63,566 bases of DNA, filler included, from Reclinomonas americana ATCC 50394 (GCA_048213135.1; 19 parts of 19 records of this genome joined end to end with filler, not necessarily neighbours in it); one strand, 5' to 3'. Shown: positions 11 to 30,306, counted from the whole stretch's first letter. The notes: generated by a model from the letters alone, not told the origin. Numbers and translations are program-made.

Positions 11-13
11 GAG

Positions 14-74: not shown

Positions 75-75
<1 letters not shown>

Positions 76-845: not shown

Positions 846-910
846 AGTGGTGGTGGAGGCGATGGAAAAAATGAATGGTACAAAAACACGGCGGGCAAAA
901 ATTTGATTTA

Positions 911-3685
911 CTACTTGTTCTCCTTGGTCTCCTGCGGCTTTGGCGGCGCCAGCGTCAACACCAGCGGCACGAACACCTTGCGTCGGAAGAGAGCCACCAA
1001 GAAATGCGCGTACACGGTGACAATGACCACATTGGAGATGCCCATGATGATGTAGGTGATGGCGGGTGACACCAGCGTGACGCCATCGTCGTTGGTGAAA
1101 TCGAAGCCTGCCAAACAAAGAAGGGATGTGAGATGCAAGCAAACAAAGCAAGGGAGAAAAAGAGGCACAATGACGCAAACCGGCGACAGAGAACACCGCC
1201 AGAGGGAAGCACCAGGAGAACCACGTGGCGTTGAAACCGTTGACGTAGGTGCGATACACGAACTTGCCGAGGCGAATGTTGAGGAGGAAGAAGAACAAGG
1301 AGCTGTAGTAGAGGATGCGACCCAAGAAGCCGCCATACTGGACCAACAGAAGGATAAGTGAGATGCACAAAGGAGAATACGTGCGCACACAAGGGAGGTC
1401 ACTCACATTGCCCAAACTGAACCACGCGGTGCAGAGGAGGGCCGGCGGGGCGATGAACACAAAGAGCGTGGGGAAGAACACCACAGGGAGCTGTCGCTTG
1501 CCGATGAAAACTGGAAGCGCGAAGGAGTGAGCAAAACAAGGAAAGGAGAGTGAGGGCGACGAGAGGCGCAACTGAACACGGCAAACGTGACGGCCATCAC
1601 AATCGGCCACAGCATGATACCGACGGAGAAGAAAAAGTGACCGAGCGTGAGTTGGCCGACCTTGGGGGCGAGGATGGCGACCGAGGCGGCGGCACCAGCT
1701 GCGTGTGAGGGGGAAGGGAAGTGAAAAGGGAGAAGGAGGTGATGGGAGCAGCAGAGCGAGAGAAGCGGAGCGCAGCAGCGAGAGAAGCGGAGCGCAGCAG
1801 CGAGAGAAGCGGAGCGCAGCAGCGAGAGAAGAGAGCAGAGAGCGAGGGAAAGGAGCACAGAGAGTGAGAGAAGTGGAGCGCAGCAGCGAGGGAAGGGAGC
1901 GCATCAGCGAGGGAAGCGGAGCGCAGCAGCGAGAGAAGCGGAGCGCAGCAGCGAGAGAAGCGGAGCGCAGCAGCGAGAGAAGCGGAGCGCAGCAGCGAGA
2001 GAAGAGAGCAGAGAGCGAGGGAAAGGAGCACAGAGAGTGAGAGAAGAGAGCGGAGAGCAAGAGAGAGGGATGGGAGCGCAGAGCGAGAGAAGGGAGCGCA
2101 GCAGTGAGAGAAGAGAGCGCAACAGCGAGAGAAGAGAGCACTGCAGCGAGAAAGAGAAAAGACGCCATCATCCTTCCCTCCTCTCTCCTCCCTCTCCTTC
2201 TCTTTCATTCTTTCCTTGCTTTCCCTCTTTCCCTCTTCCCCCTCCCTCCCGCCTTCCCCCTTTCCAACTCACATGGAATCAACATGGCCGGCGTCCACAA
2301 CTCCTTCCACGGCTTGGAGGTGTAGAGCCAGCGCCCGACCGTCAACAACAACCAAAATGCCACATTGACAAAGCCGGCCCAAAACAACACAATCGACAGC
2401 GTGTGCACATCGGCAGAGACGCCCACACCCAGCGAACAGCTCGTCATGCCCCACGTGAAGAACAAGCAGACGCGCGTGGGGTTGTGATAGTCCTCGAGGA
2501 AGAGCTTGCGGTAGGCGAGCATCTTCCACACGTAGAGGGCGGTGACAATGGCAAAGTGGGCGCCGGCGAATACGAGGAGCACGTAGGAGACGTAGCGCAT
2601 GCCGTCGATGCCGGTGAGGATGGAGACCTTGCGCCAGTTGCCGGCGAGGGAGGCCAGGCAGAGGCTCATGGCGAAGAGGAAGACGGGGGTGTAGGCCACC
2701 CAGGGGAGGCGAGGTGGAGGTGGGGAAGAGGGAGCTGGAGGCAGCGGGTTGGGGGCGGTGATGGTGGCGTTGGAGGGGGAGGAGACGAGGGAGTGCACGT
2801 CGTTGTGGGCGACGAGCGGGCCGGGGGAGAGAAGCGGGGTGTGGAGGGGGGTCTATGGAAAAGGGAAAGGAAAAGGGGAAGGGGTGAGAGTGTGGAAAAG
2901 AGGGGAGAGAGAGGGAAGGATAGAAGAGAAGTACTCCTCTCTCCTCTTTCTCTCTGCCTTGAAGTCTCGAGAAATGAAAGGGAGAGAGGGAAGAACAGTG
3001 AACAGAAAAGCTTTGTCTTCCTTCCTCTCTCTTCCTTGAGTCTCTTACAACGGGAAGTGTGAGTGGGTGAGGAAGGGAGCGAGAGCGTGAGTGAGAGACA
3101 GAGAGAGAGAGAGAAAGCAAGGAGAGGGAAGGCAAGAGAGAGAAGAGAGGAGAAACTCTCTTTTCTCTTTCTGTCTCTCCTCCTCTATCAGTATCGCGCA
3201 AGAGAAGAGTGAGAGAGACAGACAAGCAAGCAGGATGGCCAAGGAGAGAAGGAGTGAGAGAGAGAGAGAGGAAGAGTGGAAGGAGAAACGCTCTCATTGT
3301 CTCTCGTCTTTTCCTCTCTTTTCTTTCTCTCTCTCTCACACTTTCTCTCTCAGAGAGTTGCACAAAGGAGAGAGGCAGACAAGGAAGGAGAGAGTGAGAG
3401 AGTGTGAGAGTGAGAGAGAGGGAAAGAGAGACGAAGAAACTCTCTCATTGTCTCTCGTTCCACTCTTCCTTCCTCTCTCTTTCTCTCTTTCACTCTCTCT
3501 ATCTCTCTCTCTCTCTTTCTCTCTTTCTCTCTCTCTTTCTCTCTTCTCTCTCAGAGTGTTGCACAAGGAAAGAGAGTGAGAGTGAGAGTGCCAACTGCAA
3601 TAATATGAGGGATTTTTTCTAAGTAACTAACCATTTCCCTTCCTGCTGTGCCTCCGTCACGAATGGCGACATATGCAGTGCTCAT
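911..3685 (-). CDS. SLAC1/TehA/Mae1 (TDT family) anion channel, 6 exons: 3685-3632, 2852-2273, 1698-1573, 1510-1407, 1337-1181, 1107-911 (about 405 aa)
   Basis: Exons join in frame (1218 nt) with GT-AG introns; multiple TM helices; family-like motifs EDYHNPTRVCLF, PTLFVFIAPPA and FNATWFSWCFPLA; the first exon is inferred from phase compatibility. Confidence 0.8.
1749..2150. repeat. Intronic 22-bp minisatellite (CGAGAGAAGCGGAGCGCAGCAG) with a larger internal duplication
   Basis: Tandem copies with no unique spacers, inside the 1699-2272 intron; a ~50-bp block is duplicated at about 1823 and 1996. Confidence 0.9.
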
Positions 3686-4948
3686 TGTTGTCTTGTTTGT
3701 GTGTGAGAGTGTGTGTTCTCTCTCACAGAGACAACAACAATCAGTGAAGGGAGAGAGAGACTGCAAAGAAAATGCCGCGCGGAATAATTCCATTTTGTCG
3801 TGTTCGAATTATCGGAAGCTCGGAGGTGAGACTGGGAGGTGGCAGCTGGCTTTCTGTGCGGGTGGAAGGATGTAGTGTAGGTTCTATACGATGAGAGGTG
3901 CAGATGAAGTTCAGATATTTCGATATCGATTTCATGAGAAACAGGAGTAGGAATTCGAACGTTAACTGCAGGCTTGGTACTGTACACAAGGGTTTCTGGA
4001 GGTCCTGCACGTGGTAACATGTGCAGCGATTGCCTCTTCAACTGCATAACGTCGGTGAAGAGATAGATCGCAGATCTCGCGATATCGATCGAAGGAGTCG
4101 AAGTATTCGAAGCAGAGCGAACACTGAAACAAAAACCCTGCTGCTGCTGCTTCAAGACTGGTGTTTTCTGGATATGGTTGGTCTTGGTCATCAAGACAGC
4201 TGTTTGCTTGTTTGTCGGAGAATGAATTGTTGTTGTTGTTCCTGTCGAGGCAACAAAATCGAATTTGTCAAAACCGGCAGAGCTTTGGAATATCGATCCA
4301 ACTGAAGCCGAGTGCGGCAGAGCTGAGGCGATTCGGGCGAGGGTGCAACATCGTTTGTTATATTTCTTCCTTCGTCGTGGTGCTGCTTCGCAGAGGTGTC
4401 GCCGCAAAAAAAGGTCGATCGTTTCGATTTCACGAATTTGGAAAGTCGAATTCTCTGAGTGGCTGAACGCTCTTTGAGGTTCTGCACAACGACAGCTCCA
4501 TTGTCCTCTCTCTACGTAGATTACGAGACCGCGTTGAAGGCGAAATCAGCAAAGTTCCTGATAAATTCTGTGGCCGGATCTGCAACGGATTTGGATCCAG
4601 ATATCGGAGAGTACTTCGAACTCAAAGCCAGGTCCAAGTGCACGACAAGGCAGCGCCAAATTCCCCACTGCCACCTCTGCGTAAAATACAAGAGTCGAAG
4701 GCGAAAGCAGCAGACTTCCTCACAAGGCTGCGGATCGATATCCAAATATCGGAAATTCAAACTCCATGGCCCTGCCCTCAAATGCACAACAAAAAAAGCA
4801 GCTTTCATCAACGTGGATCTCCCATTGTTCACTGTTCGTCAAACAAACACAAAACGTAAAACCTTGCGCGGAAAATTGGGCGGGGAAATTCGCGCTTGTA
4901 TTTGCACAACTTTTTCTTTCTTTGTTTGTGAGAGAGTGCGCGCACGAG

Positions 4949-5071
4949 ATGAGCGACAAGGCAGCGTTGAAGGTGAAAGCAGCGGAGTTGACCGCTGTCA
5001 AGACCGGCTTCCTCACGAAGGAAGGTGTGTGTGTGTGTGAGAGGGAAAAAGAAAAAGGAGTGAGCGCATCT

Positions 5072-5107
<36 letters not shown>

Positions 5108-5511
5108 TGTGTGTGTGTGTGAGAGAGAGAGAAAGATGCGTGTGTTTGTGTGTATGTGTGTTTGTGTGAGAGTTTGAGAAAATTGTACTTTTGCGCACTT
5201 GTGGATAATGACGCACTCTCTCTCTCTCTCACGCACTCTCTCTCACACACACAGAGAGAGACACACTCACGCACAGACACGCACACAAGAGAGACACTTT
5301 GAGTGCGCGCACATTTACATTACAAATTCTCGCACTTCTCCGCTCTCTACGCGCACACACTCTTCTCTCTCTCTCTGTGCGCGCGCGTGTGTCAATGAGA
5401 GAGTGTGTGTTGAGTGTGAGAGAGAGAGAGCAAGTGAATTTGAGAATGTGGGAATCTCATGCATTGTGCTTGTTGTTTTTCAGGTGGTGTCTTCAAGACG
5501 TGGAAGAAGCG
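4949..5511 (+). CDS. 5' exons of a PH-domain protein (exons 4949-5024 and 5484-5511; partial)
   Basis: Spliced MSDKAALKVKAAELTAVKTGFLTKEG/GVFKTWKKR matches the PH beta1-beta2 signature (KxGxLxKxGGxxKxWKKR); GT...CAG intron and a GTGAGT donor after exon 2. Confidence 0.8.
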
Positions 5512-5519
5512 GTGAGTAT

Positions 5520-5551
<32 letters not shown>

Positions 5552-5568
5552 CTGTGTGTGTGGGATTT

Positions 5569-5668
5569 NNNNNNNNNNNNNNNNNNNNNNNNNNNNNNNN
5601 NNNNNNNNNNNNTTAATTAATTAANNNNNNNNNNNNNNNNNNNNNNNNNNNNNNNNNNNNNNNNNNNN
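5569..5668. other. Artificial contig spacer N44-TTAATTAATTAA-N44 (first of 18)
   Basis: The same 100-nt spacer starts at 9048, 12707, 15674, 17543, 18928, 20164, 21645, 25102, 28307, 29706, 35822, 37888, 44194, 46861, 49945, 61004 and 62311; it places stops in all six frames. Confidence 0.99.
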
Positions 5669-7171
5669 AGACCTCGGGCAGTTCGCCGGCCTTGAGGAAG
5701 CCGGTCCATTCATAGCGCCATCGCCGGGCACCGGCATCAGGCCGTCATGGTTCGGGCGCTGCGGTGCGCGCCCGCCGACGATCCAGCCGATATTGCCCTT
5801 GTTGTCGGCATAGACCTGGTTCTCGGACGGCGCGCCCCATTCAGCCATCGCCTTCTTGAAGCCGGCCCAGTCCTTCCCCGTCATGTATTCGGCCGAGTTG
5901 AAATAGGCCGAGGTTCCCGGCTCGAACCAGACCGTGCGGATGGCGAAGGCGCGCTTCTCCTCGGGCTCAGCCTTCATGACCGGGCCGTGGCGGGTGAATT
6001 TGAGCTCGATCTGGCGCGGTGCCTCGCCCTTGACCTCGATCGTCTCGCTGACGGTCTTCATCTCCTCCCAGCCGCTGCCATAGCGATACTGGTTCGGATT
6101 GGCGGGGTTGGTCTCGTAGACGTAGAGGTCCTCCTGATCGATCGCGAAGATCGTCAGGCCGAAGGCGATCTCGCCATTATGGCCGATCGAGATGCCGGGC
6201 AGGGCCGGCTCGCCGGCACCGATCACCGAGAGGCCGGGTGCGTTGAGGTGCACGACATAGCGCAACGACGGCACGCCATGAGCGCGATGCGGGTCGTTGG
6301 CTAGGATCGGCCGGCCGGTCGCGGTGCGGCTCGCGGCGATCGTCCAGTTGTTCGAGCCGATGGTCGAAACGCTGTCGCCCGCTGCGGCGAAGATTGCGTC
6401 GCGGTCGAGCGCCGCGCGCTTCTCGCCGGGAGCGGCGAAGGTCACGTCGCGCGTCGCGAGATTGTAGTCGTCGAGGATGTCCGGCTTGATCACGCAGGGG
6501 TCGAGTCCCTCTGGGACCTTGGTCGCCACGCTCGGCTCCAGCACGCGCCGGAAGCGATCGGCCTCGATGCCGGCGGCGCAGGCGACGCGGGCCCGCACCA
6601 CCTCGGACATCACGTTGCGGGTCAGGCCATGGCTGCGGATGCGTACGACATCCTCGGCGCTCCAGCGATCAGGCAGGGTGCCGGAGACGCGAAAATCGAG
6701 CGGCAATGGTTGCTTGCCAGCCCGGACCTCGTCGACACGGGCGTTGATGCCGGCGACGAAGGCGTCGGTATAGGCCTTCGCGTCGGGGCCGTAGGCGGCC
6801 CATTCCTTGTCCATCTCGCCACGATAGATGAAGAGCCGGGCGGCGCGATCCTGCGCGACATAGGACGGCCCGAAATCCTTGGCCAGCAGCCCGAGCCCGC
6901 GCTTGCGCCAGAGATCGATCTGCCAGAGCCGATCGCGCGCCGCGTTGTAGCCTTGCAGGAACAGGGCGTCGCGAGACGAGGCGGCGTAGATATGGGCGAC
7001 GCCCCATTGATCGAGGATGAGTTCCGCCGGCCCCTGCAGGCCGGCGACGGTCTGCTCGGAACGCTTCACCGCGCTGGACAGCTCGGCCTTGGCGGGCAGG
7101 CTACCGGCGATCGTGAGGGCGGCAATGGCAAACAGCGACGCTGCGCTGTATGCGCGATCTGCTCTGCTCAT
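5669..7171 (-). CDS. Penicillin acylase / AHL-acylase family Ntn-hydrolase (peptidase S45), 3' partial
   Basis: Signal peptide, DQWGVAHIYA, QGYNAARDRLWQ and the beta-chain nucleophile motif GSNNWTIAASRTATGRPILANDPH; GGAGG RBS before ATG 7171; an apparent 1-nt frameshift near 5715. Confidence 0.93.
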
Positions 7172-7914: not shown

Positions 7915-9047
7915 ATGAGCGACGACAACTACCACAAGGACCGGATCGCCAATCGCCGGCTCCATCCCGAGACCCTGATGATGGGCTATGGCTATTCGCC
8001 GGCCATGTCGGAAGGCGCGCTCAAGCCGCCGGTCTTCCTGACCTCGACCTTCGTCTTCGAGAACGCCCAGCAGGGCAAGGACTTCTTCGACCTGACCTCC
8101 GGCCGCCGGCAGCTCAAGCCGGGCGAGAAGTCCGGCCTGGTCTATTCGCGCTTCAACCATCCCAATATGGAAATCCTCGAGGATCGCCTGGCGATCTGGG
8201 ACGAGGCCGAGGCCTGCGCCGTCTTCGCCAGCGGCATGGCGGCGATCGCGACGACCTGCTTCGCCTTCCTGCGCCCGGGCGACACGATTCTCCATAGCCG
8301 CCCGCTCTATGGCGGCACCGAGACGCTGCTGAAGAACCAGATGGGCGCCTTCGGCGTCACCCCCTTCGGCTTCACGGACGGCGTCGACGTCGCGCAGATG
8401 CGCAAGGTCGCTCAGGATGCCGCCGCCAAGGGGCGCGTCGCGATGATCCTGGTCGAAACCCCCGCCAATCCGACCAACGGCCTCGTCGACCTCGCCGCCT
8501 GCAAGGCGATCGCCGACGAGCTGGAGAAGAGCCAGGGCCATCGCCCGCCGGTCGTGGTCGACAACACCATGCTCGGGCCGATCTTCCAGAAGCCGTTGAA
8601 GCACGGCGCCGATCTCACCTTGCTGTCGCTGACCAAATATGTCGGCGGCCACAGCGATCTCGTCGGCGGCTCGATCAGCGGCTCGAAGGCGCTGGTGCGG
8701 CAGGTGAAGGGCTGGCGCGGCTCGCTCGGCACGCAGCTCGATCCGAACTCCTGCTGGATGCTGATGCGCTCGCTCGAGACCCTCGACATCCGCATGCACC
8801 GCGCCAATGAGAACGGCCGCAAGGTCGCAGACTATCTGCGCAAGCACCCGAAGATCGCCAAGGTCCATTATCTCGGCGACCTCGCCGAGGGCGACCCGCG
8901 CAAGGCCGTGTTCGACCGGCAATGCGTCGAGCCCGGCTCGACCTTCGCCTTCGACGTCAAGGGCGGCGAGAAGGAAGCCTTCGCCGTGCTCGACAACCTC
9001 CAGATCATGAAGCTCGCGGTCAGCCTCGGCGGCACCGAGACGCTGGT
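7915..9047 (+). CDS. Cys/Met metabolism PLP enzyme (methionine gamma-lyase / cystathionine gamma-synthase family), 3' partial
   Basis: YSRFNHPN, FASGMAAI, ETPANPT, VDNT, SLTKYVGGHSD (PLP lysine) and AVSLGGTETL. Confidence 0.93.
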
Positions 9048-9147
9048 NNNNNNNNNNNNNNNNNNNNNNNNNNNNNNNNNNNNNNNNNNNNTTAATTAAT
9101 TAANNNNNNNNNNNNNNNNNNNNNNNNNNNNNNNNNNNNNNNNNNNN

Positions 9148-9392
9148 AGATCTTCGAGATCTGGACCTGGAGCCAGCTCGGTATCCACGGCAAGCCGCTC
9201 GGCTTTCTCAACATCGACGGCTTCTACGATGCGCTCGCCGCCTTTCTCGACAACACGACGAAGGCCGGTTTCATGTGGCAGGCCCATCGCGACATGGCGA
9301 TGATGGAGACCGATCCGGCCGCCCTGCTCGACAAGATGGAGGCCTACAAGCCGCAGACCCAGATTAAATGGGTGGAGAAGACGGAGGTTTGA
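9148..9392 (+). CDS. LOG family nucleotide monophosphate phosphoribohydrolase, C-terminal part
   Basis: Read manually: IFEIWTWSQLGIHGKPLGFLNIDGFYDALAAFLD...IKWVEKTEV*, the typical LOG (TIGR00730-like) C-terminus. Confidence 0.88.
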
Positions 9393-9450: not shown

Positions 9451-9502
9451 TCAGGAACGCTCACGAAGTGTGCCTGAGACGAACGAAGCCGCCGCTGTGA
9501 AA

Positions 9503-9657
9503 CGAACAATCACATGGCACTAGCGGGTGTTAGGCGGGATTAAGTGGGATTAGGCGGGATCAGCTGGAAAGGCGCGGCCGCCCAAGGGCTTAGGTGCGCT
9601 GCGGGCGGCCCGAAAGCCAGAAATCCCGAAAGCCAGAGCGAACAATCAAATGGCACT
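9503..9657 (+). repeat. Putative transposase-binding repeats CGAACAATCA(C/A)ATGGCACT at 9503-9521 and 9639-9657, plus tandem ~10-bp TTAGGCGGGA-like repeats at about 9530-9560
   Basis: 19-bp direct repeat with 1 mismatch starting 7 nt inside the terminal TG, like Mu L1/L2 sites. Confidence 0.75.
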
Positions 9658-9861
9658 GGCAGGCGGCCGCAACGCCACGAAGGCGGCCAAAGGTGCCCAA
9701 AAGGCCGGATCTCGGCGCCCGAACTGTTACGTTTTGGCCCCAACCGCGCCGGCAGCGTAACAGTTCCTAAAAGTGACCCGAAATCAAGGCGATGGCGCAA
9801 AATCGGCCGCCAGCGCCCGCCGCGTTAACTGTTACGGCAATCGGCCGCCTCAAACGCCCTT

Positions 9862-10116
9862 CTAGCGCGGCCCATATAGCGGGCCACCGGGAAACTTCAC
9901 CGGCTCAGGGATGCCGACATCCTCCTGCGCCGGGCGGCTGCCGCATTTCTGGCAGACCAAGCGCTTGTGGAGCTCGTCGAGGCGGTCACCATTGAGAACG
10001 CCGCGTAGCAGCCGCCAGGGAACAAGATGCGTGACCCTGCAGGTCGAGCATCTGACCTCAAGTCGCTCGTGCCCGTCGGCCATTGCGTCGTGAACCGTCA
10101 CATAACCAGCCAACAT
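9862..10116 (-). CDS. Small zinc-ribbon protein (CxxC...CxxC)
   Basis: LEVRCSTCRVTH...RLVCQKCGSRP; start codon uncertain (10116 or 10083). Confidence 0.6.
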   Translation of the reverse strand: MLAGYVTVHDAMADGHERLEVRCSTCRVTHLVPWRLLRGVLNGDRLDELHKRLVCQKCGSRPAQEDVGIPEPVKFPGGPLYGPR

Positions 10117-10280
10117 TTCGCGAGCAGCCCGACAAGAACCCGGAAAGGCCGGAAATCGCGAGCCGGAGCGGGCAGCGGACACGGCAAAGACGTGCCTCGC
10201 CGTTTCAATCGCGCCCACCGTGCTCGAGAATGTCCAGCCGTTATCCATGAATTCCACAGCTGACAGAAACTGTCAAAAAT

Positions 10281-10295
10281 GTTCTTGTTCTGTTC
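10281..10295. promoter_or_regulatory. Alphaproteobacterial LexA (SOS) box GTTC-N7-GTTC
   Basis: GTTCTTGTTCTGTTC is an exact consensus match, located between two divergent small ORFs; an adjacent palindrome TGACAG-AAA-CTGTCA lies at 10261-10275. Confidence 0.8.
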
Positions 10296-10358
10296 TCATT
10301 TGCACGCTTTGATTGAGGGAGCCTGGGCGGCAGAGACCTGGGCGACAAGGAGAGCGTC

Positions 10359-10694
10359 ATGAGTTCCAGGAAGAAGCAGGAAACCGTCGCAAGGCTGACA
10401 TACTACGTCGTGCAGTCCTATCGCGCCGCTGGCCGGAATGGCATCTCAGCCGACGATCCGATGCCTGCCACCGATCGTGACCACGCTAACCGTCTCTTCG
10501 AACGCTACAAGCCGATCCGCGCCGGCGTCGTCGCCTTCTATCGCACTGGCAGCCCGGACACCGGCGACTGGGACGACGCAATTATCATCGCCAGGCACGG
10601 CCGGTTGCCCGCCGATGTGGACGGCCTCAGAGATGATTCCGAAGCCGATTTCGACCGCCTCGATCTAGGTGAGAGCGATTTGAAGGTGGCTTGA
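10359..10694 (+). CDS. Hypothetical protein, likely SOS-regulated
   Basis: AAGGAGAG RBS; TYYVVQSY...GVVAFYRTGSPDTGDWDDAIIIARHG; lies downstream of the SOS box. Confidence 0.75.
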   Translation: MSSRKKQETVARLTYYVVQSYRAAGRNGISADDPMPATDRDHANRLFERYKPIRAGVVAFYRTGSPDTGDWDDAIIIARHGRLPADVDGLRDDSEADFDRLDLGESDLKVA

Positions 10695-10701
10695 AACTGG
10701 A

Positions 10702-10721
10702 GGGCGGCCGAATGGCCGCCC
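10702..10721. terminator. Hairpin terminator between convergent genes
   Basis: GGGCGGCC-GAAT-GGCCGCCC. Confidence 0.6.
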
Positions 10722-10760
10722 CCTACTACGCTTGGCTAAGGAGCGGGTGATAGCTCGTCC

Positions 10761-11435
10761 CTAGATCTCGCCACCAGCCCAGACAATCCGACCGGCAACC
10801 TGCAGCGCCTCGGCGTCAGGCGGCGACAGCTGCTCCGACTGATACCGCTCATTGTCGCTGATCAGCACGATCGAGTTCTGCCAGCCGAGTGCGATACGCT
10901 TAACCCTCACATTCGGCCCATCGACCAAGACATAGATCCCGTTGGCGCGGGCATGCTTCGGCCGGGTATCCACCAGGACGATCCAGCCGTCCATAATCGT
11001 GGGCTCCATGCTGTCGCCGTCGATCCCCAGGAAACGGGCGTATTTTTCCGGCACGCCGAGGCGCTGGAGCCACGTCCGCGGGAACGGCAAGCGTCGCAGT
11101 TCATAGGGCCGTGCATTCTCATAACCAGGCCCGGCAGAGGCGATCACCTCCAACAGCGGGATCCAAACGACGTCCGGGAGCTCGCCATCGGTGGCGGTGA
11201 CGATCGCCGAACTGGGCATCTCGCGGTTGAAGACGAGCCAGTCCAGCGAAGTGGCGCTCGCTTGGCACAGATTCGCGATTGGCCGCAATGGCGCACGCGC
11301 CTTGCCATCTCGCCATTTAGCGAGCTGTTCCGCTGAATAGCCGGCGACATCCGCCGCCATTTTCATCGACGGAAAGCGGGCCAAAAGGGCCTCGAACCGC
11401 TCTTTGAAGCCTTCGTCAAGCTCTTGATCGTCCAT
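10761..11435 (-). CDS. Prophage repressor, HTH plus S24 autopeptidase (CI-like)
   Basis: N-terminal HTH (MAADVAGYSAEQLAKWRDG), ASAGPG cleavage-type site, GDSMEPTI (Ser) and VRVKRI (Lys). Confidence 0.92.
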   Translation of the reverse strand: MDDQELDEGFKERFEALLARFPSMKMAADVAGYSAEQLAKWRDGKARAPLRPIANLCQASATSLDWLVFNREMPSSAIVTATDGELPDVVWIPLLEVIASAGPGYENARPYELRRLPFPRTWLQRLGVPEKYARFLGIDGDSMEPTIMDGWIVLVDTRPKHARANGIYVLVDGPNVRVKRIALGWQNSIVLISDNERYQSEQLSPPDAEALQVAGRIVWAGGEI

Positions 11436-11550
11436 GGTCGCCAATCGTCGATTGTTGCCGCTTGCGTATCGATAAAAATCGAGCTACGGTATCGTTCGTT
11501 ACTTATAAGGTTAACAGATGGCGGCCTTGGCCGCCAATCGTCGAGGCCTC

Positions 11551-11796: not shown

Positions 11797-12683
11797 TGCG
11801 CACGCTTGCCGAACTCACAGCCGGGACCCCGCTGTTCATGGCCGACCTGGCTACGATCGACACCAGCGATCGCCTTCGGCCTGTGACCCCTCAGAATGCG
11901 CAGCTCACCGCCGCGTCCATGAGCGAGACCGGGCAGATCGCGCCGATCGTCGTACGCGTCCACCCCTCGGGTAACGGCCTCAAGCTAATCGCGGGAGGCC
12001 GCCGCTGCGCGGCCGCCACCATTCTCGGCTGGGAGCAGATTGCTGCCGTCCTGGTCGAGTGCTCGGATGACGAAGCGCGGATGATCGAGGTTGACGAGAA
12101 CCTTGCCCGCGAAGAGCTCTCCCCGTTGGATCGGGCGTTTTTCCTCGCCGAGCGTAAGCGCGTCTATGAGCTGCTGAACCCCGAGGCGGGGCATGGCAAG
12201 GCCAAGAAGCCGAAGACCGAAAAAGGAAAGGTCGCCAACTTGGCGACTTTTGCGCGCTTCTCCAAGGATGCGGCCCGGTCAACCGGCCTGAGCGAGCGCA
12301 CAATCCAGCGCGCATGCGAGCTGGCCGGGGCGCTAACGCCAGACGCGGTCTCTCTCATCCGTGGCACCAAGGTCGCCGATAATCAGGCGCAGCTGCAGGC
12401 TCTCGCCGCGCTCGATCCGGCTGATCAGCTGAAGGTCGCTCGCGAAATCGCCGAGGGCCGCGCTTCCAATCTCGCCAAGGCACGCGTCACGGCCGGCATG
12501 GTGCCGGAGGGCGGTGCCGTGCGGGAGGAGGATCGGCCGCTCGTCAAGCTCGAAGCACTGCTGGCGCGCCTGACGCCCAGCCAGTTGCGCGGCGCCAAGG
12601 TGATGATCGACGCCAAGATCGCGGCGCTCGACGCCGCGCAGGCGCCCAAGCCCGCCAAGGCCAAGAAGGGCGGCGCCGCATGA
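11796..12683 (+). CDS. ParB N-terminal domain protein
   Basis: GQIAPIVVR...LIAGGRRCAAA...MIEVDENLAREELSPLDRA followed by an HTH. Confidence 0.85.
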   Translation: MRTLAELTAGTPLFMADLATIDTSDRLRPVTPQNAQLTAASMSETGQIAPIVVRVHPSGNGLKLIAGGRRCAAATILGWEQIAAVLVECSDDEARMIEVDENLAREELSPLDRAFFLAERKRVYELLNPEAGHGKAKKPKTEKGKVANLATFARFSKDAARSTGLSERTIQRACELAGALTPDAVSLIRGTKVADNQAQLQALAALDPADQLKVAREIAEGRASNLAKARVTAGMVPEGGAVREEDRPLVKLEALLARLTPSQLRGAKVMIDAKIAALDAAQAPKPAKAKKGGAA

Positions 12684-12806
12684 CCCTCACCGTCTCGCAA
12701 GCCAACNNNNNNNNNNNNNNNNNNNNNNNNNNNNNNNNNNNNNNNNNNNNTTAATTAATTAANNNNNNNNNNNNNNNNNNNNNNNNNNNNNNNNNNNNNN
12801 NNNNNN

Positions 12807-12982
12807 CGGGAAGAGACGCCTGCCCAGCGCTTCGGCGCGCGCAGGCGATCGAGGCCCAGCTGGCGACCGGCGAGGTCGTAGCCAACGCCGATGCGCTCTG
12901 GCTCGGCGGCTACCAGGCCGGACCTGAGTACCGCGCGCAGAAGACGATCGCAGAGGATTTCGGCGAGGCAGCGTTGCGTTGA
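12807..12982 (+). CDS. Mu-type transposase (MuA-like), C-terminal fragment; the body lies in the gap
   Basis: EETPAQRF..RAQAIEAQLATGEVVANADALWLGGYQAGPEY...* directly before the MuB-like gene; contains an apparent frameshift error. Confidence 0.55.
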
Positions 12983-13056
12983 CGCCTACGGAAAAGAGAG
13001 CGGCCCGCCGTTGCAGCGGCGGGCCGATGGAAGAGCAAAACAGATTGAGGATTGCG

Positions 13057-13791
13057 ATGAACCAACCCGAAAAGGCCCGCTTCGCTCCGCTGAAGAACGT
13101 GACCGCGTTGATGACGCTCGTCAACCGGCTTCAGGCGCGCAGCGTGGACCTGCCCGGCTTCGGCATCTTCCACGGCCCCAGCGGCTACGGAAAGACGAAG
13201 GCGGCGATCTACGCCTGCAACAAGACCCGCGCGCCCATGGTTTCCATCGGCGACAGCTGGACGCGCCGGAAATTCCTGGAACATGTCCTGCGCGAGATCG
13301 GCATTGCCAATCCGCGCGGCACCGTCGCTGACATGACCGAGCGCGCTATCGAGATCCTCGGCGAGAAGATCGACCGCCCCTTGATCATCGACGAGGCCGA
13401 CAAGGCGGTCGACAAGGGCTTCATCGAGCTCATCCGAGAGATCCACGACTACAGCCAGGCGCCGATCATCCTGATTGGGGAGGAACAGCTTCCGAACAAG
13501 CTGATGCAGGTCGAGCGCGTACACAACCGCGTCCTCGACTGGCAGCCGGCGCAGCCCTGCGACCTCGACGACGCGGCCCATCTGGCCGCTGTCTATGCGC
13601 CGCAGCTCACGATCGACGATGCGCTGCTCGACCAGGTCCGTAAACAGTGCGGCGGTGTCGCCCGCCGCATCTCGACGACGCTGGCGGAGATGACCGAGTT
13701 CGCTCGGAACCATGGGTTCAACCAACTCGACCTCTCCAACTTCAGCGGCCGCGTCCACACGGGCCAGCCGACGAAGCGGAGGGCAGCGTAA
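13057..13791 (+). CDS. MuB-like AAA+ transposition ATPase
   Basis: Walker A HGPSGYGKT, Walker B LIIDEAD, ILIGEE. Confidence 0.92.
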   Translation: MNQPEKARFAPLKNVTALMTLVNRLQARSVDLPGFGIFHGPSGYGKTKAAIYACNKTRAPMVSIGDSWTRRKFLEHVLREIGIANPRGTVADMTERAIEILGEKIDRPLIIDEADKAVDKGFIELIREIHDYSQAPIILIGEEQLPNKLMQVERVHNRVLDWQPAQPCDLDDAAHLAAVYAPQLTIDDALLDQVRKQCGGVARRISTTLAEMTEFARNHGFNQLDLSNFSGRVHTGQPTKRRAA

Positions 13792-14961: not shown

Positions 14962-15375
14962 ATGCAGGCAAAGCCTCTGTCCGCCGATCTGCGCGAGCTG
15001 CGAGACCTGTTCCGCACCTATGTCGCGTCCCACCGGCGGCCGACGATCGACGCCTGCAGGGATCTCACGGTGTCTCTGTGCCTGCTCGCGGAAAAGGCCG
15101 AGCGCCTTGAGCAGCGCGCGGCCGATGCCGACGAGATGGAGGCGATTGCCCGCGATCTCGACATCGTCGCCAGCGCGGCCGTCTCGCCGTCTCTGCAGCA
15201 GGCACTGATAGGTCAGCAGGCCGAGATCCAGCGCCAGCTGGACGGTGGCGGGCCGGTTCATGTTCCGCGTCCCGGCCTCGCCGCCCTCGCCATGCCGATC
15301 GGCGACAGCAACGTCGTCAGCTTCCCGCGCGCCCCGCGGCCGGCCGGCCGCGACGACGGAGGCCACGCGGCATGA
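14962..15375 (+). CDS. Hypothetical phage protein
   Basis: ORF within the operon, with GGAGG RBS and ATGA overlap to the next gene. Confidence 0.6.
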   Translation: MQAKPLSADLRELRDLFRTYVASHRRPTIDACRDLTVSLCLLAEKAERLEQRAADADEMEAIARDLDIVASAAVSPSLQQALIGQQAEIQRQLDGGGPVHVPRPGLAALAMPIGDSNVVSFPRAPRPAGRDDGGHAA

Positions 15376-15941
15376 GCGAGCGCCATGTCACCTTCGACAT
15401 GATCGTTCAGGCGGTCGGCGCCGTCGCCGGGGTCACCCGCCATGAGATCATGGTCGCCGGCCGTGCCGGCGCCGACGAACGGGTCCATCTCCGCTACGCG
15501 TGCTGGTGGCTCGCCAGCAAGATGACGTCGCTGGGTCCGAGCACGATCGGCCGGATGTCGGGCGGCCGCGACCACACCATGGTGATCCACGGCCAGCGCC
15601 GGGCCGAGGAACTGCGCGCCTCGAGCGAGACCTTCCGACTCTCGACGGATGCGCTCCTCGGCACGCTGCAGGCNNNNNNNNNNNNNNNNNNNNNNNNNNN
15701 NNNNNNNNNNNNNNNNNTTAATTAATTAANNNNNNNNNNNNNNNNNNNNNNNNNNNNNNNNNNNNNNNNNNNNGCCGTCTCGATCGACCCGCTCGCCACC
15801 GCCCGCCGCGTGCTGGCCGCGCCCGAGCGCGAGGCGGTGCGCGTCTCGACCTATGAAATCGTCGCCATGTCCCGGCTCATCGTCGAGCAGGCCGATGGCG
15901 ACACTTCCGAACCTTCAACCGAGGAGACCGTCCATGTCTGA
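15372..15941 (+). CDS. DnaA C-terminal (domain IV) HTH-like protein; probably spans the gap at 15674-15773
   Basis: TFDMIVQAVGAVAGVTRHEI...WLASKMTSLGPSTIGRMSGGRDHTMVIHG versus the DnaA signature IGxxFGGRDHTTVxHA; the continuation after the gap is inferred. Confidence 0.8.
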
Positions 15942-16590
15942 GAATGCGCCTAGCCAGCCCGTCGTTCCGGCCGGCATCATCGACGTGGGCGGTCAGCCTC
16001 ACATGCGCGACGCGAAGGGGCGCCTCGTCCCGGTCGAGCTGGTGAAGCCGGCCGACAAGCTAGAGGACGAGATGGTGCGCAAGGTGATGGCCTTCGCGCT
16101 CGATCTCTCGGCCCAGATCGCCCGCTTCAAGGAACACACCTTCGCCGACCTCAACGGCTTCCAGCAGCTGCTGGAGCAGGAGTACGGCGCCCGCGCCGGC
16201 GGCGAGAAAGGCAACGTCACCTTCCAGACCGTCGACGGGCTGATGCAAGTCAAGGTGCAGATCGCCGACCTGATCGAGTTCGGCCCACAGCTGCAACAGG
16301 CGAAGTCGCTGATCGACGAATGCTTGGTCGAGTGGGGCGCCGACAGCCGGCCGGAGATCCGCGCGATCGTCTCCCGCGCCTTCGCGGTTGAGAAGGAAGG
16401 TCAGATCAACAAGGCCAACCTGTTCCTGCTGCTGAAGCTCGATATCGGCGACAAGCGCTGGACGCGGGCGATGACGGCGATCCGCGACGCGATCCGGGTC
16501 ACCGGCACGAAGGAGTATGTCCGCTTCTACCAGCGCCGGCGCCCGCAGGATCGCTTCGAGACGGTCACCATCGACCTCGCGGCCGCGTGA
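15934..16590 (+). CDS. DUF3164 family Mu-like phage protein
   Basis: MRDAKGRLVPVELVKPADKLEDEMV...GGEKGNVTF...KEYVRFYQR. Confidence 0.85.
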   Translation: MSENAPSQPVVPAGIIDVGGQPHMRDAKGRLVPVELVKPADKLEDEMVRKVMAFALDLSAQIARFKEHTFADLNGFQQLLEQEYGARAGGEKGNVTFQTVDGLMQVKVQIADLIEFGPQLQQAKSLIDECLVEWGADSRPEIRAIVSRAFAVEKEGQINKANLFLLLKLDIGDKRWTRAMTAIRDAIRVTGTKEYVRFYQRRRPQDRFETVTIDLAAA

Positions 16591-16597
16591 GGGCGCC

Positions 16598-16807
16598 ATG
16601 GCCGCTCCCCGCTTCACCAATGAGCAACTCGCGGCCGCCGCCGAGCGCGAGGTTAGGCTCCGCGAGCGAGTCTATGCCCGGCAAGTGCAGATCAAGCGCA
16701 TGAGCCAGGCCAAGGCCGACGAGGAAATCGCCTTGATGAAGGCCATCGCCGCCAATCTACGCGCGCAAGCGCAGCGCGATGGCCTGTTCGGAGGCGCAGT
16801 CCAGTGA
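16598..16807 (+). CDS. Small hypothetical phage protein
   Basis: EQLAAAAEREVRLRERVY...ADEEIALMKAI. Confidence 0.7.
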   Translation: MAAPRFTNEQLAAAAEREVRLRERVYARQVQIKRMSQAKADEEIALMKAIAANLRAQAQRDGLFGGAVQ

Positions 16808-17073
16808 GCATTCTCCTCTCCCGCGCCCGCGACGGGCACTGCCGCTGGATCGTCTGCGAGGGTGTCCAGCCCCGCCGAGGCGAGCCGATCGACATCTTCG
16901 GCGGCCGCCGCGTCTGCGGTGAGCCCACGATTTGGCCGACGTCCTACTGCGCCGAGCACTGCCTGCGCGTCTACGCCGCCGCTCCGGCGGTCAGAGACCC
17001 CATCGACTTCACCAGCCGCAGCGCCCCGCCGGCGTTCGACCGCCAACCCGAGCTGACGGAGATCTTCGGATGA
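16804..17073 (+). CDS. GcrA C-terminal-like domain protein
   Basis: SILL..ARDGHCRWIV...VCGEPT...SYCAEHCLRVY matches the GcrA CTD pattern (CRWPxG...FCG...YCxxH). Confidence 0.75.
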   Translation: MSILLSRARDGHCRWIVCEGVQPRRGEPIDIFGGRRVCGEPTIWPTSYCAEHCLRVYAAAPAVRDPIDFTSRSAPPAFDRQPELTEIFG

Positions 17074-17972
17074 CCCTGCGCACCGTCGAACCCTTGGCCC
17101 TTCCGGAAGGCTGGACGCCGGCCGAGCTCGAAGCGTTCGTCCCCCGTTTCGAGTGGATCGCGCCGACATCGCTGCTGGTCGATCCGACTTATCAGCGCAA
17201 CCTGACCGAGACTTCCGTGAGGCTTATTCACCGCATTGCGGCCGGCTGGTCCTGGCGGCGCTTCAAGCCGCCGATCGTCGCCGAAACCAATGCGGGCCTG
17301 CATATCCTCGACGGCCAGCACACCGCCATCGGCGCTGCCACCCATGGCGGGATCCCGACGATCCCGGTGATGATCGTCGAGGGCGCCGACCAGTTGGAGC
17401 GTGCTCGCGCCTTCCTCGGCCACAACCGCGATCGCGTCGGCCTCACGGCTCTCAGCCTGTTCCACGCCGCCGTCGCCGCCGGTGCGAGGCGCGATGACTG
17501 TCATGCAGGTGTGCGGGCGGGCCGGCGTCACCGTGCTGCGACNNNNNNNNNNNNNNNNNNNNNNNNNNNNNNNNNNNNNNNNNNNNTTAATTAATTAANN
17601 NNNNNNNNNNNNNNNNNNNNNNNNNNNNNNNNNNNNNNNNNNTTCGAGGTTGCCGAAACCGTCGCCGTCGCGGCTCTGAGCGCTCTTTGCCGGCGCCGCA
17701 CCGCCATGCAGGCCAGGGTCGTGCTTGAGACGCTCGCGCAGGCGCGGCTGGCTCCGGTGACCTCGGACGCGATCAAGGCGGCCGAGGAGCTCCTGTACGG
17801 CTCGACCTATGCCGGCGAGATCGCCGCCGACGATTTGAAGGCGACGCTCCTGGCCCGCTGGCCGGACATGCAGCGCAAGGCGGCGGATCTTGCCTTGGCC
17901 AAATCCCTGCCGAAATGGCGGGCGCTGACGATCTCGCTCTACCAGAACACGAGGAAGCGCCGTGCAGCCTGA
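17070..17972 (+). CDS. ParB/Srx-like (DUF6551-type) protein; spans the gap at 17543-17642
   Basis: LLVDPTYQRNL...WSWRRFKPPIV...ILDGQHTAIGA. Confidence 0.7.
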
Positions 17973-18339
17973 CGTCGAACTGGCGGCGCTGCGCGCCCGC
18001 AATGCCTGGCTCGAGGAGCGCGTCGCCTTCCTGGACCGCGTGTTGGTGGCAGCCTTGGCTCTGCCGCTGGAGTGGCGCCTGACGGTCAACGAGGCCCGCC
18101 TCGTCTCGGCGCTCTATGGGCGCAGCGAATGCACCAAGGATCAGCTCATGGCGGCCTTGTATCGCAACGACGGCCGCGACGAGCCGATGGAGAAGATCGT
18201 CGACGTCTTCATCTGCAAGGCCCGGGCGAAGATGCGCCCGTTCGGCGCCAACATACTGACCCGCTGGGGCCATGGGTACAGCCTGGACGGTGCCGCCCGC
18301 GCTGCGATCGACAAGCTCAACCAGAAGGTGCCGGCATGA
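17962..18339 (+). CDS. Stand-alone OmpR/PhoB winged-helix domain resembling the CtrA DNA-binding domain
   Basis: LTVNEARLV...DEPMEKIVDVFICKARAKM...ILTRWGHGYSL versus CtrA DEPELKIIDVFICKLRKKL...IETVWGRGY; a coiled coil replaces the receiver domain. Confidence 0.85.
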   Translation: MQPDVELAALRARNAWLEERVAFLDRVLVAALALPLEWRLTVNEARLVSALYGRSECTKDQLMAALYRNDGRDEPMEKIVDVFICKARAKMRPFGANILTRWGHGYSLDGAARAAIDKLNQKVPA

Positions 18340-18927
18340 CCCCGCGCGAGCGTCTGCGCAGTAAGATCGCCGCCCTGCAGGCCAAGACCGAAGCCAGCGG
18401 CTGCACCGAAGCCGAGGCGATGGCCGCGGCCGCGCTGGCAGCACGACTGATGGCCGAGCACGACTTCGACCAGGCTGAGATCGAGATGACCGAGGCAACC
18501 GCTGCCGACAACTCGACCCGGACGACGAACCGCACCACCTGGCGCGACAAGCTCTCGGGCGCCATCGCCTATTACACCAACTGTGCCATGCTGATCCGCT
18601 GCGATCGCGGCGACATCCTGTTCGTCGGCCGCGAGCCCGGGCCCGATATTGCGGCCTATCTCCGCGATGTCTGCTTCCGCGCGGTGGATCGCGCCCTGCG
18701 CGAGTTCAAGGAGACGCCGTTCTACACCCGCCGCCGCAAGCTCTCGACCCGGCGCGCGGCCGCGGCCGATTTCATCGACGGCATGGTGCTGCGCCTGACC
18801 GTCCGGCTCGGCGAGCTGTTCAAGCCCATCCGAAACGAGGCCGCCCGCCAGGAGGCGAAGCAGGCGCTGGCAAAGCGCGAGCCCGGCACTGTCCCTGTCG
18901 TGTTGAAGGAGCGGAAGGAGCGCTACG
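18336..18927 (+). CDS. DUF2786-type phage protein, 3' partial
   Basis: RLRSKIAALQAKTEASGCTEAEAMAAAALAARLM. Confidence 0.75.
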
Positions 18928-19027
18928 NNNNNNNNNNNNNNNNNNNNNNNNNNNNNNNNNNNNNNNNNNNNTTAATTAATTAANNNNNNNNNNNNNNNNN
19001 NNNNNNNNNNNNNNNNNNNNNNNNNNN

Positions 19028-19320
19028 TCCAGATCGAAGAAGTCCGCCTCGCTGAGACCCGGGCGCATAGCCTGCGCCATGGTCTGCCGGTCGTCGAGAA
19101 GCGGCCGCGGGATGTGGTGGCGCGCAGCGCCGAGGTGCTGAACTGCGCCAGGCGAAGCCTGGAAACGCTGTCGGAGCATGCCGACGAGATCCGCGCCTTC
19201 CTGAAATTGCCGGCGGATGCCCGCGAGGCCGTGCTCCGCCATGGCGAGACTATGGGCCAGATGTGCCTCGAGCTCGCAAAGCGCGAGGCGATCGCCAAGG
19301 CGGGAGGGCCGGCACGATGA
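19028..19320 (+). CDS. Hypothetical protein, 5' partial
   Basis: Open frame whose stop overlaps the ATG of the LexA-like gene. Confidence 0.45.
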
Positions 19321-19646
19321 TGGGCCTGACGCCGCGCCAGGCCGACTGCCTGGCCTTCATCCGCGGGCGCCTCGAGGCCGGCCACGTCGCGCCGTCGTAC
19401 GAGGAGATCGCGGCGCATCTGCGCATCGTCAAGAGCAACGTCCATCGCATGGTCCATGCGCTCGAGGAGCGCGGGCATATCCGTCTGATCCGCAACCGCG
19501 AGCGCTCGATCGCCCTGGTCGCCGACGGTGTGACCAAGCCCATGGAGGCCGGGCTCGCCTTGCTCTCGCGCGTTACCGGCAAGAGCCGCGACCAGCTTGT
19601 CGCCCAGGCGGTCGAGGAGTTCCTCGAGCGGCAGGTGCGGCGATGA
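19317..19646 (+). CDS. LexA DNA-binding domain fused to a ribbon-helix-helix-like tail (no S24 domain)
   Basis: LTPRQADCLAFIRGRLEAGHVAPSYEEIAAHLRIVKSNVHRMVHALEERGHIRLIRNRERSI versus alpha LexA LTxKQxELLxFI...PPSFDEM...[26 protein letters not shown]; C-terminus LSRVTGKSRDQLVAQAVEEFL. Confidence 0.85.
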   Translation: MMGLTPRQADCLAFIRGRLEAGHVAPSYEEIAAHLRIVKSNVHRMVHALEERGHIRLIRNRERSIALVADGVTKPMEAGLALLSRVTGKSRDQLVAQAVEEFLERQVRR

Positions 19647-20163
19647 CGCAGCATTCCTTCTCCTTCTCGCCGGCCGTCATGGCGCAGCGTTCCGAGCCGG
19701 CCGACTCCCTCGACTTCTTCCCGACGCCGCCCTGGGCGACCCGCGCCTTCGTGCACCATGTTGCCCGGCCGGAGCTGGGGGTGCTGATCCCCGATCAGAT
19801 CCTGGAGCCCGCCTGCGGCGAAGGGCACATGGCCGAGCCGCTGAAAGAGGTGTTTCCCTTCGTCGCCGCGAGCGACGTCCATCCCTATGGCTATGGCGAG
19901 GTCGAGGACTTCCTTCAGGCCGGCGGCAACCGTGGCGCCTGCGACTGGATGTTCACGAACCCGCCCTTCAACGCGGCCGTGGCTTTCGCTCGCCAGGGGC
20001 TGGCGCTGGCGCGCTGTGGCGTCGCGATCCTCGTGCGCACCCAGTGGCTGCACACCATCGAGCGTTACGAGCTCTTCCGCGAGTTTTCGCCCTTCGTAAT
20101 CGCCTATTACGTCGAGCGCGTGCCGATGCACCGCGGCCGCTGGGAGCCGGACGGCGACACGGC
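19643..20163 (+). CDS. DNA amino-methyltransferase (NPPF type), 3' partial
   Basis: DFFPTPPWAT, ILEPACGEGHM (SAM binding) and FTNPPF (catalytic). Confidence 0.88.
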
Positions 20164-29919: not shown

Positions 29920-30069
29920 CGAGATACCCCCCGAGAGCGTGGGGTCCGGTTCGCCTTCGCACGATGGGCGCGCCGGTTAGGGCGGGAGGCGCTTCGGCTC
30001 TCCTGTCCCGGACAACCCCTCATCTGACGGCCGCCGGCGTGCGGGGCGGCCGTCGCCTTGGAGTTTCCG

Positions 30070-30306
30070 ATGACCCAGCATTCCGGCCTGCCAGTTCAAG
30101 GCTATCGCCCTCAGAGCGGCGAGGCCGTGGCGCTGGTCAACCTGAACAAGCAGCTCGAGGAGCAGGTTCTCCGTGCGCTCGATCTGCTCGCGGCCAATCC
30201 CGAGATTGATGTCCGCTGGCTCGCGATCGGTCGCACCTCGATCGAGCAAGGCTTCATGGCCGTCAACCGCGCCGTCTTCAAACCCGCGCGCCTGGGTCAG
30301 GGCTGA
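30070..30306 (+). CDS. acb2: Acb2-like anti-CBASS cyclic-oligonucleotide sponge
   Basis: QHSGLPVQGYRPQSGEAVALVNLNKQLEE...RWLAIGRTSIEQGFMAVNRAVFKP versus Acb2 [24 protein letters not shown]...[24 protein letters not shown]. Confidence 0.8.
   Translation: MTQHSGLPVQGYRPQSGEAVALVNLNKQLEEQVLRALDLLAANPEIDVRWLAIGRTSIEQGFMAVNRAVFKPARLGQG

Follow-up and report, generated by a model that had tools for sequence, protein, structure and literature searches.

Stand-alone homologues of DnaA, GcrA, CtrA and LexA domains in the early region of a Mu-like prophage

The stretch of DNA analyzed here (63,566 nucleotides, called the window below), which is filed under Reclinomonas americana ATCC 50394 (GCA_048213135.1), carries a Mu-like transposable prophage. 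The early region of this prophage encodes four small proteins, each of which is homologous to one functional domain of an alphaproteobacterial global regulator: domain IV of DnaA, GcrA's C-terminal domain, the DNA-binding domain of CtrA and the N-terminal domain of LexA. DnaA, GcrA, CtrA and the methyltransferase CcrM make up the textbook cell-cycle circuit of the alphaproteobacteria. The homology of the four proteins, their domain make-up, the conservation of their recognition or contact residues and their distribution suggest that the phage may interfere with the cell-cycle and DNA-damage control of its host. We give a probability of about one half to the reading that the proteins occupy the partners of their parents, host targets included, in a competitive or unregulated way. 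An original prediction had located the four open reading frames (ORFs) and quoted motifs, and these hold at the coordinates given in Table 1.

Draft contigs make up the 63.6-kb window, which is a pseudo-scaffold with 18 joints of the form N44-TTAATTAATTAA-N44 (for example at 15674-15773). The joint gaps stand for 22 to ~2,200 bp, the entire MuA gene among them, in the near-identical record G002, an IMG/VR provirus record of 45,672 bp that matches the window in 13 blocks at 99.6-100% identity and bridges the joints. The nearest genome, G001, holds the same prophage at 95-97% identity, and genes that are cut by joints were completed from G002 and G001.

Four single-domain relatives of host regulators

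The kinship of each protein to its namesake, rather than to helix-turn-helix (HTH) proteins in general, had been proposed before and is borne out by whole-genome searches, by searches of 301 genomes of the host's order and by profile-profile comparisons with hhalign. It was also correctly anticipated that the domain that controls the parent is missing in all four, since no AAA+, receiver or S24 domain is found in them at E ≤ 1 in Pfam, the threshold that applies to the absences reported below unless another is given.

The DnaA-like protein is 165 amino acids (aa) long in G002 (8688-9182) and consists of domain IV followed by a family-specific C-terminal segment of ~70 aa, which is conserved but is recognised by no library searched. 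It passes the Pfam cut-off of Bac_DnaA_C (PF08299; 41.5 bits against 31.5), as do all nine members of its family, with scores of 39.9-83.8 bits. Pairwise identity to the DnaA of G001 is 35% over 77 aa (E 2e-8), and the single protein retrieves chromosomal DnaA in 197 of the 301 genomes. The profile of the nine family members aligns with the C-terminus of G001 DnaA at a probability of 99.8% (E 4e-28), while a stand-alone Bac_DnaA_C ORF of the GafA-N type in the same genome is reached at E 2.4e-10 and RDJLphi1 gp38, a GafA homologue, is not matched (probability 1%). The protein is not a full DnaA: TIGR00362 is matched only at positions 343-434, with 38.4 bits against a cut-off of 343.9, no AAA family is found in it by Pfam, and the AAA+ domain III and domains I-II are missing. 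The DnaA signature RDHTT(V)xH contacts the DnaA box, residue roles being taken from the E. coli domain IV-DNA structure. It is kept as GGRDHTMVIHG in the window and is kept in most of 11 homologues. The stand-alone Bac_DnaA_C ORF of G001 is 140 aa long and has a DUF6456 ORF (149 bits) directly after it (L009, G001:C55, ~233.7-235.0 kb), a pair that fits the split arrangement of GafA, the gene transfer agent (GTA) activator, which Fogg 2019 describes for Rhizobiales.

In the CtrA-like protein Pfam finds Trans_reg_C with 30.4 bits (cut-off 26.2) and no Response_reg receiver. Its best NCBIfam model is CtrA, with 31.6 bits compared with 23.7 for PhoB, and only positions 168-221 of the 224 of this model are matched. 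The protein is 43% identical to G001 CtrA over 75 aa (E 5e-11). When the whole G001 genome was searched with it, nothing was matched apart from the prophage copy and CtrA itself (47% identity, E 6e-7), in a genome with ~15 other full-length OmpR-type regulators, and the hhalign score of the family profile is 107.5 to CtrA against 53.3 and 70.8 to the next two regulators. In the recognition-helix stretch DEPxxKI(I/V)DVFICKxRxK, 13 of 19 residues are identical between the prophage protein and host CtrA. Ahead of the winged helix, residues 7-28 show a 3-4 heptad pattern (L7, L10, N14, L17, V21, L24, L28) in which L17 and L24 are invariant in ten homologues. From this pattern we infer that the segment may act as a dimerising zipper. 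The gene directly upstream encodes a ParB-like protein, of which an 88-aa ORF at 17706-17972 is the C-terminus. The two genes form a cassette that is found in six loci (L029, L030, L031, L038, L091 and L132), two of them without Mu genes nearby.

For the LexA-like protein the Pfam score of LexA_DNA_bind is 39.1 bits (cut-off 23.7), and MarR_2 also passes (34.3 against 27). TIGR00498, the full-length model, is reached with 45.3 bits against a cut-off of 110.95, and neither Peptidase_S24 nor a cleavage site is found in the protein. It is 41% identical to G001 LexA over 75 aa (E 2e-14), in 285 of the 301 genomes it finds the chromosomal LexA (38-51% identity), and its helix 3 and wing residues are close to those of host LexA. 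The short tail is RHH-like; in the homologue from G272, a genome of the same genus as G001, RHH_1 scores 19.9 bits, just under the cut-off of 20.5. We also note that G002 (~12408-12833) differs from the window and G001 by an indel that joins the LexA-like frame to the one upstream of it; a strain difference or an error in sequencing may account for this.

The fourth protein is the one for which the link is remote. The DnaA-like, CtrA-like and LexA-like families pass their Pfam cut-offs in 9/9, 7/8 and 3/3 members, so that the expectation of domain-library matches stood for these three, while the GcrA-like protein is tied to GcrA by profile-profile comparison only. PF07750 gave no match to G002 at E ≤ 10, BLASTP against G001 GcrA is weak (31% identity over 52 aa, E 0.002), and GcrA was reached neither by single-protein genome searches nor by hmmsearch of 1.84 billion representatives. 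In hhalign, 19 close members of the family aligned with 26 GcrA sequences at a probability of 85% (E 6e-6, score 37.5), compared with 8.1 for the reversed profile and at most 18.6 for 30 column shuffles. A more diverse set of 18 representatives (50% identity) reached 96.1% (E 3.1e-9, score 55.7; reversed 9.1, 40 shuffles at most 14.7). The alignment is limited to GcrA columns 121-170, the sigma70-interacting domain, and leaves out the N-terminal methylated-DNA-binding domain.

The residues support this alignment. The sigma70-interacting domain of GcrA is described as loops held by a CCCH zinc site (C118, C133, C143, H146), and binding of sigma70 as dependent on W120, F130, F132, Y142 and Y151 (Wu 2018). 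Within the 19 sequences of the prophage family there is no variation in C13, C38, C49, H52, W15 and Y48, and almost none in Y57; mapped on the residues of Wu 2018, the zinc ligands and the counterparts of W120, Y142 and Y151 are thus invariant or nearly so. The spacing is C-X24-C-X10-C-X2-H, compared with C-X14-C-X10-C-X2-H in G001 GcrA, which makes the first loop longer by 10 residues, and the family carries an additional, conserved acidic tail. GcrA's C-terminal domain alone binds sigma70 domain 2 and travels with sigma70 to promoters (Haakonsen 2015). An hmmsearch of PDB sequences returned nothing relevant, and the GcrA-like protein had no tblastn match in phages at E ≤ 0.1. With 21 clusters at E ≤ 1e-3 in the 1.84 billion representatives, the GcrA-domain-only family is a small one; it has no Pfam or PHROG label and is the most novel part of the set; literature searches returned nothing on such a protein. 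Apart from its canonical gcrA, G001 also has a second, longer GcrA-family ORF (L002, G001:C7:114474-115091; open frame 317 aa), which scores 47.7 bits with PF07750.

Distribution of the genes and of candidate target sites

Four single-protein searches were run over the same 301 genomes. Stand-alone forms were found in ~9 of them for CtrA-like, ~11 for DnaA-like, 3 for LexA-like and, convincingly, 2 for GcrA-like proteins, and only the G001 prophage has all four together. A related prophage in G272 has three of the four, with no CtrA-like match. A second sample was drawn from IMG/VR with the DUF3164 gene as anchor, so that none of the four genes served as bait; it comprises the best 80 of 525 confirmed loci, includes the same phage, contains many loci cut by contig ends and was scored with hidden Markov models (HMMs) at E ≤ 1e-4. 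Here 24 of the 80 loci have a DnaA-like gene, 5 a CtrA-like, 3 a LexA-like and 3 a GcrA-like gene. All four HMMs score in two loci, L082, which is the record of this prophage lineage itself, and L086, whose DUF3164 is 71% identical. L086 does have DnaA-like, GcrA-like and LexA-like genes; in place of the zipper-CtrA, it encodes (L086:2045-3061) a ~270-aa protein in which an OmpR-type winged helix forms the C-terminal part, behind an N-terminal domain of unknown type. In L083, with a 98% identical DUF3164, the order is DnaA-like, DUF3164, GcrA-like, p69, DUF2786, p106, LexA-like and methylase, and both the ParB-like and the CtrA-like gene are missing. Some genes do recur together: p106, a 106-aa protein, is always directly before the LexA-like gene in Mu-like loci (L038, L039, L071, L083 and L086), and every locus in which a GcrA-like gene was found has a LexA-like and a DnaA-like gene as well (L038, L071, L082, L083 and L086).

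Given L083, the recurring pairs and L086, the set is a mosaic of cassettes among close kin, and the cassettes are not co-inherited; inheritance lends no support to the earlier idea of a coordinated module. Searches for the locus with a single protein as query found only the same phage, and blastn against cultured phages matched essentially only DUF3164. In diverged phages the members of each family are conserved at 27-60% identity, their frames are intact and they have the added segments typical of the family. The G+C content at third codon positions (GC3) of the genes is 0.87-0.90, like that of their neighbours.

We then consider the sites that the parent proteins would recognise. The CtrA box TTAA-N7-TTAA has no match in the 42-kb prophage even with one mismatch, so that a CtrA-type specificity would point at host sites. 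The sequence TGATCCACA has one exact copy in the prophage, within a coding region; its near-matches number 11 against 5.6 +/- 2.1 expected, a mild excess that may follow from GATC richness (ratio 1.41) and is not used here. The intergenic regions of the prophage have no host-type boxes in common. The prophage does have a single intergenic SOS-type box, a perfect GTTC-N7-GTTC that adjoins the repressor region, and 64 bp downstream of it, beside the repressor, lies an ORF of 111 aa. This box type is also found upstream of G001 lexA, and the G272 prophage keeps a 61%-identical ORF with an SOS-type box 77 bp upstream of it. Owing to this conserved box, host LexA, and plausibly also the LexA-like protein of the phage, have a target inside the phage, and the 111-aa ORF is a candidate SOS-controlled induction factor.

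The gene that follows the LexA-like gene encodes a DNA methyltransferase, which had been counted with the CcrM circuit. The Pfam family of CcrM is N6_N4_Mtase. No Pfam methylase family is found in the window protein at E ≤ 1 or in its G001 copy at E ≤ 1e-3, and for this reason a relation to CcrM is not supported; the protein matches phrog_799 only, and no PDB relative was found. Separately, GANTC is ~8-fold depleted in the prophage (G002 683-42693; 25 sites compared with ~214 expected). Depletion is just as strong in the host flanks (ratios 0.14-0.27) and in four other Mu-like loci, which rules out an avoidance specific to the phage; avoidance of CcrM sites is common to host and phage.

The prophage and its surroundings

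The features discussed here are collected in Table 1. The Mu-like nature of the element, which the original prediction had recognised, is evident from its genes: MuA is supplied by G002 4124-6295 (724 aa, with rve, HTH_Tnp_Mu_1 and Mu-transpos_C), and a Ner-like HTH protein, GemA, a Mor/C-type late activator (phrog_836) and the virion genes gp27, portal, F, I, gp36, gp45 and gp48 are also present. The closest named homologue of one prophage gene comes from Bosea sp., and the host is best explained as a Bosea-like member of the Hyphomicrobiales, a soil-type alphaproteobacterium.

Table 1. Coordinates of the features in the window, with strand and basis of assignment
Feature	Position	Strand	Basis and remarks
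SOS-type box GTTCTTGTTCTGTTC (perfect GTTC-N7-GTTC)	10281..10295	+	single intergenic one in the prophage
111-aa prophage ORF	10359..10694	+	downstream of SOS-type box
Prophage repressor with S24 peptidase domain	10764..11444	-	PF00717 63.9 bits; phrog_4
MuB-like AAA+ transposition protein	12979..13791	+	phrog_296, E 2.2e-53; MuA gene in joint before MuB
DnaA domain IV-like protein, 5' part	15372..15673	+	Bac_DnaA_C; joint at 15674
DUF3164 protein, conserved neighbour of DnaA-like gene	15934..16590	+	PF11363 243.8 bits
69-aa protein	16598..16807	+	phrog_19667, E 1.4e-5
Stand-alone homologue of GcrA C-terminal domain (sigma70-interacting CCCH zinc finger), 89 aa	16804..17073	+	hhalign, conserved residues
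ParB-like protein, 274 aa in G002 (one ORF)	17070..17972	+	phrog_1033, E 7.8e-18; interrupted by joint 17543-17642
CtrA-type winged helix lacking a receiver, N-terminal heptad (leucine-zipper-like) segment, 125 aa	17962..18339	+	Trans_reg_C
DUF2786/DUF7168 protein, joint-cut	18336..18927	+	library matches
106-aa protein (p106), 3' part	19030..19320	+	G002 12191-12508
LexA N-terminal-domain homologue with short RHH-like tail, 109 aa	19317..19646	+	LexA_DNA_bind
DNA methyltransferase, joint-cut, 224 aa in G002, NPPF motif	19643..20163	+	phrog_799, E 1.9e-41 and 3.7e-52

The left end of the prophage is near 9498 in the window. Just inside it are two 19-bp direct repeats (cgaacaatca[c/a]atggcact; 9503-9521 and 9641-9659), which are predicted to be transposase-binding sites, and three copies of a AACTGTTAC-type motif follow them at 9720-9840. 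At the right end and beyond (41971-45859, minus strand) are genes for a DCC1-like oxidoreductase, a 606-aa protein of unknown type and a tyrosine integrase; the window and G002 diverge after 44703, and in G001 the same flank adjoins the opposite end of the prophage. Among the head and tail genes, at 30058-30303, an 82-aa protein with an Acb2/Tad1 hairpin domain is encoded (PF24729, 60.2 bits); the annotation of this family is that of a sponge for nucleotides used in defence signalling. The first part of the window (1-5500) has a lower G+C content (0.49-0.57) with a strong positive GC skew. Contigs from RNA libraries span the early region, but DNA carry-over is possible and contigs cannot show transcription, so they are not used as evidence. 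In the poly-A RNA library X4 the contig word depths are 170 and 29 over L038:2795-4848 (window ~9500-11550, the left end and the repressor) and ~5-10 over the early operon, with the same limit that contigs cannot prove transcription.

Possible roles and their alternatives

Truncated CtrA, DnaA-like, LexA and GcrA homologues are already on record in other phages. The CtrA-like protein resembles RDJLphi1 gp37 (annotated ctrA, 151 aa; Trans_reg_C 52.8 bits), another receiver-less CtrA-type winged helix, and in tblastn it is 39-45% identical to sequences in 30 phage records; gp37 has relatives in phages of Paracoccus and Rhodobacter capsulatus. It differs from gp37 in its N-terminal heptad zipper, in its place in a Mu-like early operon and in its ParB-like cassette; gp37 lies between GafA and rcc01866 homologues, a setting that the prophage gene does not share. 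Like the LexA-like protein, gp6 of the Bacillus tectivirus GIL01 is a LexA N-terminal domain without a cleavage domain (tblastn 37-39% identity, residues 4-71), although phage type and host phylum are different and the prophage protein has an RHH-like tail and a lone phage SOS box at the left end, near the repressor. With GafA, which belongs to a phage-derived element, the DnaA-like protein shares an HTH of the DnaA domain IV type that is put to use outside DnaA. The Mu-like family is far closer to true DnaA than to the stand-alone Bac_DnaA_C ORF of G001, as the two E-values above indicate, and it lacks a DUF6456 or sigma-like partner. Annotated DnaA-like domain proteins exist in a few phages of Rhizobium, Bradyrhizobium and Brucella. 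The GcrA-like protein has the CCCH zinc finger with which Caulobacter GcrA binds sigma70 region 2, the binding being a property of GcrA, but it is the C-terminal domain alone, without the N-terminal methyl-DNA-binding domain, the linker and the basic patch. A GcrA homologue of phiCbK is mentioned in Mascolo 2022, a work on host CtrA sites in phage genomes. On this set as a whole, searches of the literature for DnaA domain IV as a stand-alone protein or for a truncated LexA, whether in Mu-like or in alphaproteobacterial phages, returned nothing.

A mechanism that would fit these structures is that each of four independent small genes goes back to a single functional domain of a host global regulator, which was rebuilt with an addition specific to the phage. 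The DnaA domain IV is joined to the conserved C-terminal segment and the GcrA zinc finger to the acidic tail. The CtrA DNA-binding domain would gain an N-terminal zipper and could then dimerise without phosphorylation, and LexA's N-terminal domain with its RHH-like tail would be a repressor that RecA cannot cleave. After induction, the phage-made proteins may compete with or replace the host regulators, such that the partners of the parents (we infer DnaA boxes, sigma70 region 2, CtrA boxes and SOS boxes) would be occupied without control. The LexA-like protein would also act on the SOS-box promoter of the prophage itself, and the genes are separate cassettes that phages mix and not one co-selected module.

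Several observations weigh against this reading. The GcrA-like protein has no match to PF07750 at E ≤ 1 or to any other Pfam model, and none in PHROG or NCBIfam; the AlphaFold2 (AF2) model of its family is also poor (pLDDT 53.8), because the zinc fold is rich in loops. The expected agreement of recognition residues with the host proteins, which does hold for the CtrA-like and LexA-like proteins, fails for the basic loop of the DnaA-like protein, where the window copy is among the most diverged and most of its relatives are not. The mosaic of cassettes counts on the same side. Other observations are those that one would expect of regulators directed purely at the phage, in which host-derived DNA- or RNAP-binding domains were recruited to serve phage promoters, transposition or the timing of replication, an effect on the host being no part of the design; GIL01 gp6 and the GafA/CtrA regulators of GTAs and roseophages are of this kind. 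This explanation is a serious contender, though we consider it somewhat doubtful. The DnaA-like gene is at a fixed place in the Mu-like early region in 12 of 12 genomic loci, after homologues of MuB, p183 and p128, as well as being present in the 24 IMG/VR loci, and such a fixed position fits a phage-intrinsic job. In GIL01, a phage that carries LexA boxes too, the truncated LexA homologue gp6 is an activator of the late promoter (Fornelos 2018), the DnaA-like domain of GafA binds the RcGTA promoter and activates GTA genes, and RDJLphi1 has GafA next to a CtrA without the response-regulator domain (Fogg 2019). The conserved SOS box upstream of a prophage ORF is a further point of this kind, and the ParB-like and CtrA-like genes move as a pair, as would suit a phage function that is self-contained. 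Yet the 42-kb prophage has no CtrA boxes, a single exact TGATCCACA in a coding region and no shared host-type boxes between its genes, the Mu-like DnaA family is unrelated to the RDJLphi1 homologue of GafA, and the phage already has its own Mor/C-type late activator, which also speaks for occupancy of the partners of the parents.

The original prediction went further and held that the four proteins, with a CcrM-like methylase, form one co-selected module by which both the DnaA-GcrA-CtrA-CcrM circuit and the SOS response are taken over in favour of replicative transposition. We consider this quite improbable. All four genes do lie within 4.3 kb, on one strand and in an operon-like run, each protein is specifically related to its namesake, and the GcrA-like gene is restricted to the five loci that also hold the LexA-like and DnaA-like genes. 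However, the four are together in one phage lineage only among the 301 genomes, the one locus beyond it in which all four HMMs score has a winged-helix protein of different architecture, and the 98%-related phage and the prophage of the same genus have no CtrA-like gene. Since the carriers are close kin, co-occurrence among them is not independent. The missing methylase family in Pfam, the conserved SOS box of the prophage and the action of the analogue GIL01 gp6 on a phage promoter also tell against such a module. That the proteins are decaying, functionless fragments of host genes picked up by the phage has almost nothing to recommend it beyond the fact that each is a single domain of a host protein, as the conservation of the families with their added segments, the intact frames and the GC3 described above, together with an identity of only 31-43% to the host parents, all speak for maintained genes. 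Returning to the occupancy of the parents' partners, a more detailed and in our opinion unlikely form of it is that the 89-aa protein docks on host sigma70 region 2, where it would displace GcrA or bring in a phage partner through its acidic tail, and that together with the zipper-CtrA, the DnaA-box binder and the uncleavable LexA it would allow Mu-like phages of the Hyphomicrobiales to halt the cell cycle of the host and dampen its SOS response while they transpose replicatively.

If the proteins do act on the host, they would be natural dominant-negative or constitutive parts of the circuit, which would make them ready-made tools and would reveal the nodes that phages find worth attacking. 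The GcrA-domain-only family gives a sharp prediction, namely binding to sigma70 region 2, and the zipper-CtrA is a test case for the question of whether dimerisation alone activates the DNA-binding domain of CtrA. If phage promoters alone are served, these proteins would be further cases, like GIL01 gp6, of the re-use of host regulator domains by phages.

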